In this document: piece after piece, positions 36,301 through 39,300 of the stretch
Numbering within the stretch: position 1 is the first letter of the stretch
How the letters are laid out: each line of letters starts with the position of its first letter
Source of the DNA: Myxococcales bacterium
Lineage (GTDB): Bacteria; Myxococcota_A; UBA9042; JABWCM01; BTVJ01
Length of the DNA stretch: 41,294 bases
Assembly: GCA_045863395.1 (NCBI GenBank)
Contig: BTVJ01000064.1
Coordinates: 1 to 41,294 of the forward strand
Direction: 5' to 3'
Made by a program: the position numbers

Positions 36301-39300
36301 TCGCTCGACGACCTCGAACGCCGACTGGGACATCAGAACATTCATCGCGCCTCCGATTGAGTGGTAGCCGATGGACAACGCGGGTTGAACCGTGGTCGGG
36401 TCAGACCCAGACGCGCCCCGTCTCCTTCCACTCCTCGTAGTGAAACAGCCAGGCCGACACCCACGCGAGCAGAGTGACGATGGTCGACCGCCTGGTGAAC
36501 GCCTCCCCATGGTCCAGGCAGAGAGAGCCGTCGATGAACCGGTGAGGGGTGTTGGCTGGGAGATCCGGCTCGACGATGTGGGCGACCGGCATGACCCCGT
36601 CGCCGTAGTTTGGTGGCAGCGCCACGAGGATCCGGTACGCAGCCCGCAGAGAGCGGTTTGGTCCTACGATTCCCGTGGCGTACGTGATGCCGTTGTGGTG
36701 GACGTCCACGGTGAACCCTGGGTACTCCTGGGCGAGCACGTCTCTCTCCATGAACAGTCGCTCGCGTCCCTCGGGCGTCTCCCAGAACTGTCCAACTGCT
36801 GCCCAGACGTGCGCGCGCATGGTCACACCTCCACCAGAGAGGCGAAGTCGCACTTGGACTCGCTGGCGTCGATGCAGGCACCACCCCACTCGTGATCCTT
36901 CATGCTCACGCCCGCAGGAGCTTTGCCGTCTGGAGCGTGCTGCGACGGCTTTCCGGCGCTGGCGTGTGGAGCGGCGTGGGCGGGGTCCACGGCGACCATC
37001 TCACCGTTGACGATGCGGACTGACCCAGCCTCCTTGAGGTGTCTGCGGAGCTCCTCGATGGTCTCGTTCATTTCCCGCGCCTCCATGCCTCGATGAGGGT
37101 CTCAGATTGGCGCGACCGCACCCTCGGCCACGCACGGTACAGCCTACGAGCGTCGAGGACGCTCCCCTGTTGACATGTCACCAGAGCACGCGAAGCCAAA
37201 GACATGCACTGCGGCTTGGGCAAGTCGCGTCAGACACATGCCAGCAGCAGCTCTCAAGGCTGATCGGCGCGCGCGGAGGGGCGGCCGGCATCGACGGCCG
37301 TCGGGTCAATAACCCCAGCACCGAGGCGTGCCAGCCGGTAGGAACCTCGCCTCGGGGGAGAGGGGCGAACGCCGGGGGCGGCTGACCCAGGTGACGGTCT
37401 TCGCGTCCCGGCATGGGAGGATCACATCGTGGGACGGGATTGCGGAGCAGCAGGCGCGACAGCGGGCTCAGTCAGCCCTCCGGGTGCGCGAGGGCACCAC
37501 GGGCCACCAGGCGACGCAGAGCACGCAGACGAAAGGCGCGGGCCACGGCTCCTGCGGTCGCAACCGGGCGCGCATCCCTTCGCGGGCGCCCCGGAGTACG
37601 ACGATGCCGCAGCAGTGATCGGCGCAGAGGAGCCCAGCACGCGACGTCATACCGGGGACCTCGACCCCTCGGACGATGACGCGGCAGCAGCGACCGGCGC
37701 GGAGGAGCCCCGAACGTGGAGGGAACTGCAGGGTGTGCTGGCAGCCGCGCACGTCCTGTTCGGGGCGACGCGCACGGGCGCGGCGCAGCGCGCTCTGGAG
37801 GACTTCCACGGTGTCCTCATGCGCATCCCGCACGAAGGCTGCCGGGACCCGTCATCGCTCTGTCGCCGACTCAGGGACAAGTCGGAGATCTGTCCAAGCC
37901 GGATGCGCGCGTGGGTCGCTGCGGCCATTGGGACCGCGGCCGGGGACTCGGCCTCCCTCCCCTCAGCGTCCCTCTTCCGACGACCCGACGACCTGCTCCT
38001 GGACTTGAGGGAGGTGGAAGCGCTGGCGCATCGCAACCGGCGGTCGTGGTCACCCACGCTCGGCGCCGACCTCCAGCAGGCGGCCCGCCGCGCCGTGAGC
38101 GTGGCCATCGACCGCAAGGCGGCGCTTTGCCGCTCACGGCGTCCTCGCCGCGCCGGCAGCGGAGTTGTGCCGGACCTTGATCGCGTCGCATCGTGGCTCA
38201 GTGACCACCCCAAAGTTCATCGCATGGACCACGCTTCGTTCGTATACGAGCGCATCGACACCATCTGCGAGGTTCTCGACAGGACCCTGGACCGTGGCGC
38301 CCACGCCCCGCTCGCGGCCATGGCATCGGCAGCGGCGCCCCACCTGATGGTGCTCGAGCGCACGGCCATCCTCCGCCGCCTCGCGGAGGCCGTGTCAATG
38401 ACCAGCGCGGACGGGACCCGCACGTGTACCGCCCTTTGGGCCCTGACGGACCTCGTCGGAGCGCACCTATATAAGGATGGCGACCTTGACCAGCTCGGCC
38501 ACGCGGTCCTCAACGACGATGTGAAGCGCTGTATCGAGGACCAAGCGCACGGGGTGGAGGCGCGCGCAAGAGACACCGCAACGGCATCCAAGAGCCGCGC
38601 GCTCCGCCCCATCCTCCTCGCCGTCGCAGCCTTCGAGCGACTGCGTGGACTGACCGCGCATCGCGCCGGGGCCGACCTCCACGTCGTTCTGCACCACCTG
38701 TCCCGCGCCAAAGCACACGCGCTCGATGCATCCCACGAGACCTTGCAGGTCGCCCTCGTAGCAGACGAGTCCGTGGTGCGCCGCGCCCACGGACAGACGG
38801 CGGAGGCCATCGCGTCGCTGGCCCGGGCCCTCGTCATCGCCAGAGGGCACCGCAACCACCGCATGCGCTTCGTCCTTCATCGCGAAGCCGCCTACACCTG
38901 CGCACAGCACGGAGCCCCGCTCCTCGCCCTGGAACACGCCTCGCTGGCGCACGAGACCCTGGACATCATCGACGACCTGTGCGAGATCCAGGTCCAGGGC
39001 CGCATGCGCCCCGGGTGGTACCAGCCCAGCTTCCGCGCAGAGCTGAAGAGGCTCTACGCAGACCTCGAAGGAGCGGGCGTCGCAGTCGAAGCGCTGCAAG
39101 CATCCCACCCCGCCGCCGCCGAGAGCCGTCGTCCGGAAGCACCGACCGACGGCTCGAGGCGTTCCCAACTGAACCGCTAGCCTCCGCGAACGCCCAAACG
39201 GGGGGTATGCTAGCGAAAGAAGGAAGTCATGTTATTTCAATCGGATAGCATCCCCAGAGGCACTTCGCTGCTATGAAAGACTTGCGCACTCGGGGCAAAG

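Follow-up and report, generated by a model that had tools for sequence, protein, structure and literature searches.

A short candidate conjugation tag encoded with E2, JAB and E1 genes in a CRISPR adaptation operon of a Myxococcales bacterium

We analysed a 41,294-nucleotide stretch of a Myxococcales genome, referred to here as the window. On its reverse strand lies an operon in the order tag-E2-JAB-E1-TM-RT/PrimPol-Cas1-Cas2, in which the first gene encodes a putative conjugation tag (hereafter the tag) and TM is a small membrane protein. The features of the locus are as follows.

36823..37071 (coding 36826-37071), reverse strand: tag gene g04704, 82 aa plus stop, the first gene of the cassette
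36982..37071, reverse strand: tag residues 1-30, an amphipathic helix and beta-hairpin (IEELRRHLKEAGSVRIVNGEMVAV), from invariant columns and the AF2 model
36883..36909, reverse strand: conserved tag end V-S-M-K-D-H-E-W-G, residues 55-63, with K58 and H60 invariant
36826..36882, reverse strand: 19-residue tail after Gly63, unconserved, carrying the Shine-Dalgarno sequence of the E2 gene
36401..36820, reverse strand: E2 gene g04703, 139 aa plus stop, E2-CBASS family
36797..36820, reverse strand: second, degenerate junction motif M-R-A-H-V-W-A-A at the E2 N-terminus, from ungapped alignment to the orthologue L003
36542-36544, reverse strand: E2 His93, invariant in a 31-sequence alignment
36518-36520, reverse strand: E2 Cys101, conserved in at least 90% of the 31 sequences
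35374..36345, reverse strand: JAB/JAMM peptidase with a cysteine-less E2/UEV-like domain (PADLOC JAB, 6e-10)
34219..35370, reverse strand: ThiF-type E1, 383 aa (Pfam ThiF, 2.6e-20; PADLOC E1-E2 models, 3e-23)
33855..34226, reverse strand: small membrane protein, 123 aa, its start overlapping the E1 stop
31321..33846, reverse strand: RT-AEP/PrimPol fusion, 841 aa, ending ...GVLVAPVTNHEWA-stop (Pfam RVT_1, 1.6e-19; AEP-TOTE, 4.7e-10)
31324-31338, reverse strand: RT-PrimPol C-terminal motif NHEWA-stop, the same motif as the tag end
30312-31292, reverse strand: cas1 (Pfam Cas_Cas1, 5e-85)
30039-30308, reverse strand: cas2 (Pfam CRISPR_Cas2, 2e-13)
39441..41294, forward strand: CRISPR array with a 37-nt repeat (CCTGGAGGGGGGGCGCCCGCTACGAGGGCATTGAGAC) and a period of about 75-76 (Tandem Repeats Finder), reaching the contig end

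The survey's finding described the 82-residue product of the first gene as a tag of about 63 residues that ends in HEWG and is followed by 19 more, and the coordinates and anatomy that we obtained agree with this. The gene has a GGAGG 8 nt upstream of its ATG, and neither Pfam nor PADLOC matched the protein to a family. R9, L12 and G23 are invariant in the tag head (alignment A6), which is joined to the end motif by a variable, Pro/Ala-rich linker whose length differs by tens of residues among relatives. The end consensus of the family, an invariant G-V-x-V-K-x-H-E-W-G, finishes at residue 63 in the window, and Gly63 is the probable mature C-terminus. The 19-residue tail is wholly different in P0002, a relative 73% identical to the window tag. 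The E2 is read in a different frame from the tag, and its GGAGG lies within the tag's last codons. An AF2 model of the fused orthologue L002 gives the tag part a helix at residues 3-14 and strands at 19-22 and 25-28, with a pLDDT of about 77; in the same model, residues 31-63 score about 46-53 per 10-residue block, with 31-40 and 55-63 below 50. The ESM Atlas model of the window tag has a pLDDT of 0.37, and a look-alike search of the Atlas with the tag gave no usable match. The tag DNA recurs in contigs of three further runs without an indel, leaving the tag unchanged. In two metatranscriptome runs of a single study, contigs span JAB, E2 and tag and end in both cases at 37112-37123, beyond which one DNA run extends; RNA libraries can hold DNA, and these contigs give a faint hint of expression.

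Searching 5.8 billion clusters with a tag profile (E<=0.01), we found 28 free-standing relatives of 59-122 aa, at 3e-13 or better. The tail after K-x-H-x-W-G is 2 aa long in 22 of the 28, 1 aa in one, 11 aa in one and 19 aa in two (the window tag and P0002); the remaining two continue into E2 sequence and are cut fusions, giving 26 intact free tags. The 2-residue extension that follows KPHEWG in the 22 is fixed in length and variable in sequence. In a second subfamily, the free tag ends exactly at ...KPTTWA (L004/L064, L005). In free tags, the stop codon and the start codon of the E2 overlap (TAATG or GTGA), and the split tag/E2 form is common to the window and P0002/P0003. We also found seven in-frame tag-E2 fusions (L002/L012, L003/L013, P0005, L059, L060, L057 and L045), in which the E2 core begins 2-5 residues past the motif Gly, and one decayed tag-E2 locus, L061. 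The conservation of the tag in free and fused form that the survey had reported is borne out by these counts, as are its head-to-tail tandem units, of which P0032 and P0078 hold three apiece, each marked by a KPxRW motif. The residue after the W is Y, F or H in many wider relatives (P0032, P0078, P0043 and others), so the cut site is not universal. Judged from the sequences, the tag is conserved far beyond chance, and a chain boundary straight after W-Gly/Ala appears to be respected in free, E2-fused and repeated tags alike. A single-sequence word-index search returned one relative of the tag and one of the E2; class-level searches of 107 and 401 genomes gave no further locus, and a scan of genome contigs with the single E2 sequence found nothing.

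The E2 belongs to the family found in E2-CBASS: the PADLOC E2 model PDLC00876 matches it at 8e-18, its profile matches the solved SmE2 (8hsb_B) at E=0.0018, and Foldseek matched it to UBC-fold E2s. Its H93/C101 pair corresponds to H87/C101 of SmE2, where the two residues form a protease-like pair (bioRxiv 10.1101/2022.05.25.493364). In the alignment it ends opposite SmE2 residue 145 and, unlike SmE2, is without the tail bearing Lys159 and His152. The degenerate motif at its N-terminus aligns gap-free to K-N-H-R-W-A-M of L003. The motif persists on E2 N-termini where no tag end is possible, as MRAHVWAA in the window, as MRDHVWAA in P0003 and as RLKPITW after just 15 residues in P0152, an observation that runs against reading it as a tag end. 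The tag end motif and the E2 copy share no DNA-level repeat, and we therefore reject recent duplication as the source of the latter. A search with the single E2 sequence gave 223 matches at E<=1e-3, and 147 of the best 150 have the catalytic pattern. Among these 147, an N-terminal extension of at least 30 aa is present in 22, with the strict K[PT]xxW in 8 and a looser [KR]xxx[WF] in 21. The survey had placed K[PT]xxW at the end of E2 N-terminal extensions and in no short E2; the first part stands for those 8 of 22, and the second falls to 3 of the 125 short E2s that also have the motif. Our counts differ from the earlier ones because a single sequence was searched rather than a profile.

The JAB domain occupies residues 1-165 of its protein, with HxHx7SxxD intact, and is followed at about residues 187-290 by the UEV-like domain, which has an invariant FPPEYPxGAP and no cysteine. 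In the AF2 model of this protein (pLDDT 76), the JAB superposes on Cap3 (9ild_A; Z 16.0, rmsd 2.0, 138 aligned) and residues 187-285 on the UEV domain of Tsg101 (2f0r_A; Z 8.1, rmsd 3.4, 97 aligned). The JAB is thus Cap3-like, with its metal site intact. The E1 has intact GxGxxG and ATDxxDxR motifs and only four cysteines, in two CxxC pairs (C274, C277, C375 and C378) that are invariant in 5 orthologues (alignment A4) and presumably bind zinc, as in ThiF/MoeB. Outside these pairs, the window E1 has no counterpart of the catalytic cysteine of canonical E1s of the Uba1, Cap2 or BilD type, and the thioester step therefore cannot take its canonical course. The small membrane protein has a conserved C-terminal R-[IV]-[DN]-x-[FY]-G-E-L, and its orthologues occupy the same slot in L012, L013 and L014.

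The array, tag/E2, JAB, E1, membrane protein, RT-AEP and Cas1 lie in a common order in the window, L012 and L014; L013 has the same gene order, with no array seen in the available stretch. Rfam gave no RNA family in 36300-41294. The end motif of the tag recurs at or near the end of the RT-AEP in 4 of 5 orthologues adjoining the cassette: NHEWA-stop in the window, PHDWA-stop in L056 and L014, and PHRWA followed by 9 aa in L055, in whose genome the tag likewise reads NHRWA. The RT-AEP beside the distant cassette in L045 is without it. The motif is in none of the 13 RT-AEP/AEP frames of 9 cassette-free loci, which include the second adaptation module of this genome, and among the 44,148 genome frames of at least 100 aa, only RT-PrimPol ends in H[EDR]W[GA]. 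A prediction of the complex between the E1 and the last 44 residues of RT-PrimPol, run without controls, scored 0.00 in two runs against a mark of 0.32 and speaks neither for nor against an interaction. In L064, tag-E2-JAB-E1 lies in an ICE-like context with neither CRISPR nor RT-AEP; the cassette thus occurs apart from CRISPR, which argues that its own substrate is the tag. Supplementary file 2 of a 2023 study already lists a CRISPR-linked E2 and ThiF-type E1, and the Fig. 6B legend of that study also names ThiF (PMC10910872). As far as those two items show it, that module has a ThiS-type beta-grasp protein, NYN and CorA, unlike the window cassette, and neither the file-name row of supplementary file 2 nor the figure legend names RT-PrimPol, JAB or the tag. 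New here are the placement of the cassette within a CRISPR adaptation operon and an RT-PrimPol that shares the end motif of the tag. The earlier reading of this locus had missed the CRISPR context and the RT-PrimPol motif, along with the E2 N-terminal copy and the restricted cysteines of the E1.

Distant relatives of the E2 directly follow a CD-NTase gene in L062, L063 and L010, and these cyclases end in ...IRPNTFYG-EKE, ...LKHTNFG-ED and ...RKNTFFG-SGD, respectively. The alignment of the L010 cyclase with SmCdnG (407 residues) extends to ...PKNTFYG406, and the tag end is in register with K-N-T-F-Y-G406 of SmCdnG, where E407 follows. The cyclase tails and that of SmCdnG consist of a helix, strands and ...[KR]-x-x-x-aromatic-Gly plus 1-3 residues. 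In SmCdnG, residues 352-398 form a helix and three-stranded sheet that recruit the E2, which strips the residues after the Gly of CdnG and is then covalently joined to CdnG; natural CD-NTase-E2 fusions exist, and CdnG tails show no sequence conservation save the Gly (PMC12948482). The AF2 model of the tag has two of the three CdnG-type strands; the third (GVxVK) is not predicted, and the end motif is unplaced. When 8 tags were compared with 3 cyclase tails by hhalign, the end motif alone aligned, at a non-significant probability of 0.2%. The link to CdnG is one of build, register and gene position rather than of demonstrated homology. Scans of 22 window ORFs (7 by PADLOC and 15 more, housekeeping and cas genes, by Pfam) gave no CD-NTase or effector, and with no cyclase among the scanned ORFs we reject a CBASS operon in the window.

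The explanation that we favour, and hold at about even chances, is that the tag is a cargo-less conjugation module that works like the C-terminal piece of the E2-CBASS CD-NTase, and not like ubiquitin or Pup. The residues after Gly63 (19 here, usually 2, the whole E2 in fusions) would be removed by the JAB or by the Cys/His pair of the E2, as in SmE2. The E1 would then adenylate Gly63, and the acyl group would move directly to E2 Cys101. Ligation would then join the tag to a lysine of the E2, of the tag itself (forming chains) or of a target, and the JAB would undo the ligation. RT-PrimPol is probably a second substrate because it ends in H-E-W-Ala with a free carboxylate, like the CD-NTase in type II CBASS; if it is, spacer acquisition would be under the control of conjugation.

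Alternatively, RT-PrimPol could be the real cargo, with the tag or E2 extension mimicking its HEWA end and occupying the E1, E2 or JAB site, so as to hold off or compete, and never being transferred. RT-PrimPol does end in the same motif with a natural free carboxylate, and this reading would also suit the motif copies that stay on E2 N-termini, the 2-5 residues between motif and E2 core in fusions and the frequent replacement of the Gly/Ala after the W in wider relatives. However, the L064 cassette is without any RT-AEP, and the RT-AEP of L045 is without the motif, so that mimicry of that tail cannot be all that the tag does. With an extension conserved in length and variable in sequence, free tags resemble precursors, and the tandem units resemble poly-precursors. 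We therefore regard the mimic as unlikely, if still a serious contender.

Ligation could also proceed without the E1, as in E2-CBASS: the Cys/His pair of the E2 would cut after Gly63, the tag-E2 adduct, such as an armed or a silenced E2, would be the functional product, and the E1 and JAB would act on something else. The E2 family, whose His93/Cys101 pair gives SmE2 its protease-like activity, the natural tag-E2 fusions and an E1 without a separate catalytic cysteine are all compatible with this. We nevertheless judge it quite improbable, as the SmE2-type tail, with its acceptor Lys159 and with His152, is missing from the E2, and every complete close locus retains both E1 and JAB.

It is very improbable that the tag is a non-functional remnant, an ORF in decay since a frameshift separated it from the E2, whose N-terminal extension it once was. 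The unusual, unconserved 19-residue tail and the clearly decayed L061 would fit such a history, but the 26 intact free tags have an invariant end and are translationally coupled to the E2, and the split form also occurs in P0002/P0003. This conservation and the identical tag in three further runs lead us to reject a pseudogene or assembly error. Finally, a very divergent, shortened beta-grasp ubiquitin-like protein is scarcely credible and rejected on the AF2 model, as the survey had also held: the tag is first in a Ubl-E2-DUB-E1 order and has a C-terminal Gly(-Gly) that trimming could expose, but where a beta-grasp has about five strands round one helix and at least 65 ordered residues, the tag has a helix and two short strands predicted within its only ordered residues, about 28, the other 35 being variable linker and motif, with no Pfam family and the low Atlas pLDDT given above.

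Returning to the tag as a cargo-less module, a broader proposal is that a ubiquitin-like conjugation cascade is integral to a co-transcribed CRISPR adaptation operon, with a 63-residue tag that is not a beta-grasp and with RT-PrimPol also acted on, by way of its H-E-W-Ala end. We consider this possible, though on balance doubtful. If it is true, covalent tagging would act as a switch on spacer acquisition or on what becomes of the polymerase; to our knowledge, no CRISPR system has been described with a post-translational control layer of this kind. A further consequence would be that E1/E2 chemistry needs a short recognition tail only and no beta-grasp, and the tag would be the first free-standing E1/E2/JAB substrate without that fold, amounting to the recognition tail of a CBASS cyclase alone, encoded by a gene of its own. 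On this view of the origin of ubiquitin-type tagging, tail and enzymes would have come first, with the beta-grasp optional. The placement of the cassette between array and RT-PrimPol-Cas1-Cas2, together with the shared motif, poses a testable question, namely whether conjugation regulates spacer acquisition, and the parts of the cassette are small and easily expressed.

Several known systems resemble the cassette in part. Precursors of polyubiquitin and ubiquitin fusions have head-to-tail repeats, downstream fusions and short variable C-terminal propeptides. The tag is similar in its repeats (three units in P0032 and P0078), its downstream fusion and its short variable propeptide; unlike in polyubiquitin, its unit is about 43-63 aa and not a beta-grasp, and Y, F or H follows the W in the repeats. 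Pup, a tag that is small (about 60 residues) and intrinsically disordered, ends in GGQ/GGE and has PafA and Dop as partners; a glutamine-synthetase-like ligase joins it via the side chain of its C-terminal Glu, and neither E1 nor E2 takes part. The tag is like Pup in size and disorder, whereas its partners are E1, E2 and JAB and its end is aromatic-Gly. The survey's view that the tag is of a new kind and closer in build to Pup than to ubiquitin is not sustained, given an E2 of the E2-CBASS family and CdnG tails that share the build and gene position of the tag.

The cassette has the Ubl-E2-DUB-E1 gene order of BilABCD (types I and II) and Bub operons (PMC10557695), with the tag in the Ubl slot; there the precursor is processed to expose a C-terminal Gly, as the tag probably is, and the E2 family differs from that of the window E2. 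In type II CBASS (Cap2/Cap3), E1, E2 and JAB modify a protein other than ubiquitin at its C-terminus, as proposed for the cassette. By analogy, its CD-NTase may be paralleled by RT-PrimPol, with the motif at a free C-terminus, and its JAB, Cap3, is the closest structure to the window JAB. Unlike the Cap2 E1-E2 fusion, E1 and E2 are separate genes here, with an E2 of the type known from E2-only CBASS; also unlike type II CBASS, whose operons include a CD-NTase and an effector, the cassette has a dedicated small substrate gene and a JAB with an extra UEV-like domain.

The closest known counterpart, by analogy, is the C-terminal module with which CdnG recruits its E2, minus the cyclase, because the E2 is of the E2-CBASS family, cyclases lie upstream of related E2s and the tails are built alike. 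The CdnG motif (SmCdnG 352-406; 8hsb, 8yjy and 9kkb) likewise runs from a helix through strands (three, against two predicted in the tag) to an aromatic-Gly tail with removable residues; it too is encoded just before an E2-CBASS-family E2 or fused with one, and it too is not a beta-grasp. Unlike CdnG, the tag has no cyclase domain, begins 3 residues before the helix, has a long Pro/Ala-rich linker and is free-standing or repeated, and whereas E2-CBASS has neither E1 nor JAB, the window cassette has both.

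In the window, part of an uncultured environmental Myxococcota MAG, the 82-aa tag (g04704) heads a tight row of genes that extends to cas2, all on the (-) strand:

36823-37071, (-), tag, 82 aa
36401-36820, (-), E2, 139 aa
35374-36345, (-), JAB
34219-35370, (-), ThiF-type E1
33855-34226, (-), small membrane protein, 123 aa
31321-33846, (-), RT-AEP/PrimPol fusion
last in the row, after the RT-AEP/PrimPol gene, (-), cas1 and cas2
about 39441 to the contig end, upstream of the row, CRISPR array with a 37-nt repeat

Housekeeping genes lie farther downstream, beyond the cas genes. The tag begins at an ATG with GGAGG 8 nt upstream, and the Shine-Dalgarno site of the E2 gene is found inside the last codons of the tag gene. 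Two metatranscriptome runs of a single study yield contigs that hold JAB, E2 and tag in one piece, a weak hint of expression given that RNA libraries can contain DNA. These contigs both end at 37112-37123, some 40-50 nt upstream of the tag start, and a contig from a DNA run continues beyond it; the operon transcript may have its 5' end there. A 583-aa ORF (37429-39180, (+)) is transcribed divergently and has no match among the Pfam or PADLOC families. The related locus L055 has a relative in the same place (phmmer 9.7e-19); L012, L014 and L061 instead encode another large protein upstream, on the same strand as the cassette, that of L012 with a weak Trans_reg_C match.

We found that this row is shared with other genomes. 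The array, tag/E2, JAB, E1, membrane protein, RT-AEP and Cas1 follow one another in L012 (genome G279) and L014 (G430), and L013 (G289) has the same row, with the array absent from the stretch examined. A more distant version, L045 (G076), encodes tag-E2, a JAB-E1 fusion, RT-AEP, Cas1 and Cas2. Tag, E2, JAB and E1 also occur without CRISPR, in L064, where the setting is ICE-like with TraG-like, relaxase and integrase genes. Each of the four close loci has the small membrane protein between E1 and RT-AEP (orthologues at L012 7357-7803, L013 5952-6323 and L014 6127-6534), its start overlapping the E1 stop. A single membrane helix forms its N-terminus, and its C-terminus carries a conserved R-[IV]-[DN]-x-[FY]-G-E-L; it belongs to no known family, Pfam giving a sub-threshold match only. 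In its passages on RT-AEP fusions, PMC8632793 describes them as 'clade 12' of the CRISPR RTs, with a link to type III systems, and makes no mention there of ubiquitin-type enzymes. The passages of Altae-Tran et al. (PMC10910872) consulted list an E2 and a ThiF-type E1 among CRISPR-linked genes, and we saw in them no account of the cassette beside CRISPR. Our literature searches on CRISPR RT/primase adaptation and on bacterial ubiquitin-like conjugation gave none.

The survey's finding had proposed that the tag is a module in its own right, with units also fused to the E2 in relatives, and both points held. Single-sequence searches gave one relative each for tag and E2. With a profile built from eight tags and a cut-off of E<=0.01, we retrieved 28 free-standing proteins (3e-13 or better), every one of them with K-x-H-x-W-G. 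This motif is followed by two variable residues in 22 of the 28, by one residue in one, by 11 in another, by 19 in the window's tag and its close kin, and by E2 sequence in the remaining two. Tag stop and E2 start overlap as TAATG in L014 and GTGA in L058. In seven relatives tag and E2 are fused in frame, the E2 core starting 2-5 residues past the Gly. A second subfamily (G094, G052) has a free tag ending exactly at ...KPTTWA, then E2, JAB and E1, and it has fused cousins (P0068, P0086, P0149). Taken together, the free-tag ends, the fusions and the KPTTWA stop make W-Gly/Ala a natural point for the polypeptide to end, one arrived at several times over and independently. An assembly error does not account for the unusual 19-residue tail of the window's tag: P0002, 73% identical to the window's tag, and its E2 counterpart P0003 are split likewise, and the tag region is unchanged, with no indel, in contigs of three further runs. 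At the start of the window E2 the junction motif occurs a second time, in degenerate form (MRAHVWAA, 36797-36820, (-); MRDHVWAA in P0003), so the split form has the motif on either side of the split. In L061 5285-6194 the cassette has decayed: tag and E2 carry internal deletions (...KPHDWGAGYNDGSLCVDHSG..., the same as in P0039), and JAB is truncated.

We modelled the fused orthologue L002 with AF2 (18-row alignment, mean pLDDT 81). The E2 core exceeds pLDDT 90, and the tag head, made up of a helix (3-14) and two strands (19-22, 25-28), scores about 77. Over residues 31-63, which take in the end motif, the 10-residue blocks drop to about 46-53, those at 31-40 and 55-63 being less than 50. For the window's tag, the model in the ESM Atlas reaches pLDDT 0.37. 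A beta-grasp fold is excluded, as the survey had claimed, and the L002 model bears out its description of an N-terminal helix, a hairpin and a loose linker.

The JAB is structurally closest to Cap3 of type II CBASS (9ild_A, Z 16.0, rmsd 2.0, 138 aligned). Cap3-type JABs have about 160 aa, whereas the window JAB carries an extra C-terminal, cysteine-less E2/UEV/RWD-like domain at residues ~187-290, with invariant FPPEYPxGAP and GWSSxH. Over residues 187-285 it aligns with the Tsg101 UEV (Z 8.1, rmsd 3.4, 97 aligned); with moderate confidence we regard it as probably UEV-like, a Z of about 8 being rated common by the comparison tool. Two invariant CxxC pairs account for all four cysteines of the E1. 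A separate catalytic cysteine is absent, and the acyl group is most simply predicted to pass directly from the adenylate to the E2. In L045 (8586-10250), JAB, UEV-like domain and E1 form one 555-aa frame, and JAB and E1 share a frame in L060 as well. A different E2/E1/JAB system, L066 7819-12858, starts with two consecutive E2-like genes, of which the second has a Phd/YefM-like N-terminus and an RWD match; ThiF, JAB and a patatin-like phospholipase come after them.

What might this cascade modify? The window's RT-PrimPol ends in the tag's own motif, ...GVLVAPVTNHEWA-stop (NHEWA; 31324-31338, (-)), and its counterparts in L056 (10470-10484) and L014 (9063-9077) end in ...PHDWA-stop. That of L055 has ...PHRWA plus nine residues (~5955-5969), echoing the NHRWA of the tag in the same genome, an anecdotal match from a single lineage. 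The L045 RT-AEP lacks the motif. Of the 44,148 stop-to-stop frames of at least 100 aa in the whole genome, the window's RT-PrimPol is the only one with an H[EDR]W[GA] ending. None of 13 RT-AEP/AEP frames from nine loci without the cassette (its absence judged by phmmer at E<=1e-3 within 9-18 kb per locus) has the motif; cassette-less RT-AEPs have another end, ...F-x-I-E-L. One of the nine is a second adaptation module in the window's own genome (contig C78; L054 4093-10272), with an AEP-like ORF, Cas1, Cas2 and RT-AEP, and neither an E1/E2/JAB cassette nor an HxW[GA] ending.

We give an even chance to the reading that we rank as most likely, in which the tag serves as a cargo-less conjugation module. 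Once processed after Gly63, the tag would be activated by the E1, loaded onto Cys101 of the E2 and ligated to lysines; the JAB would both trim it and reverse the ligation, and RT-PrimPol would be a second substrate. In the main rival reading, the tag or extension would be a pseudo-substrate regulator and RT-PrimPol the true cargo. Copies of the motif that stay on E2 N-termini (MRAHVWAA in the window, MRDHVWAA in P0003, RLKPITW in P0152) and the non-Gly residue after W in many wider relatives speak for this alternative, which we consider rather unlikely.

Comparison with known systems places the window E2 in the E2-only CBASS type. It matches PADLOC E2 models down to 8e-18 as well as a cyclase-E2 fusion model, its profile finds the solved SmE2 (8hsb_B) at E=0.0018, and Foldseek confirmed the UBC fold; the PADLOC and SmE2 matches led us to reject a Bil-type E2. 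It has no match at E<=0.1 in the Pfam copy scanned; the near-identical P0003 bears the precomputed Pfam label PF26395.1. The distant relatives L062, L063 and L010 are genuine E2-CBASS loci, and there a CD-NTase directly upstream of the E2 occupies the slot of the tag. These cyclases end in ...VAPIRPNTFYG-EKE, ...VTVLKHTNFG-ED and ...VPVRKNTFFG-SGD; a helix and short strands come before each of these ends, and the L010 cyclase aligns with the solved SmCdnG (407 residues) through ...PKNTFYG406. According to passages of PMC12948482 and bioRxiv 10.1101/2022.05.25.493364, SmCdnG 352-398 is a helix and three-stranded sheet that recruits the E2; SmE2, via Cys101 and His87, cuts off whatever follows Gly406 and then binds the Gly either in a thioester or in an isopeptide bond with Lys159, with chains possible; and natural CD-NTase-E2 fusions exist. 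The window E2 keeps His93 and Cys101 but stops where SmE2 residue 145 aligns, without the Lys159/His152 tail, and unlike E2-CBASS the cassette has an E1 and a JAB; that E1-independent self-ligation of the tag to the E2 is the end state is quite improbable. The tag thus resembles the CdnG C-terminal module in build, with a helix and two of the three strands predicted, and takes its gene position, but comes without the cyclase. Their ends are also in a common register, with Lys at -5, an aromatic residue at -1, Gly and a short propeptide. The likeness is one of build, register and gene position, hhalign of tags against cyclase tails giving no significant match (probability 0.2%), and among CdnG tails themselves the Gly alone is conserved in sequence, as stated in part of PMC12948482.
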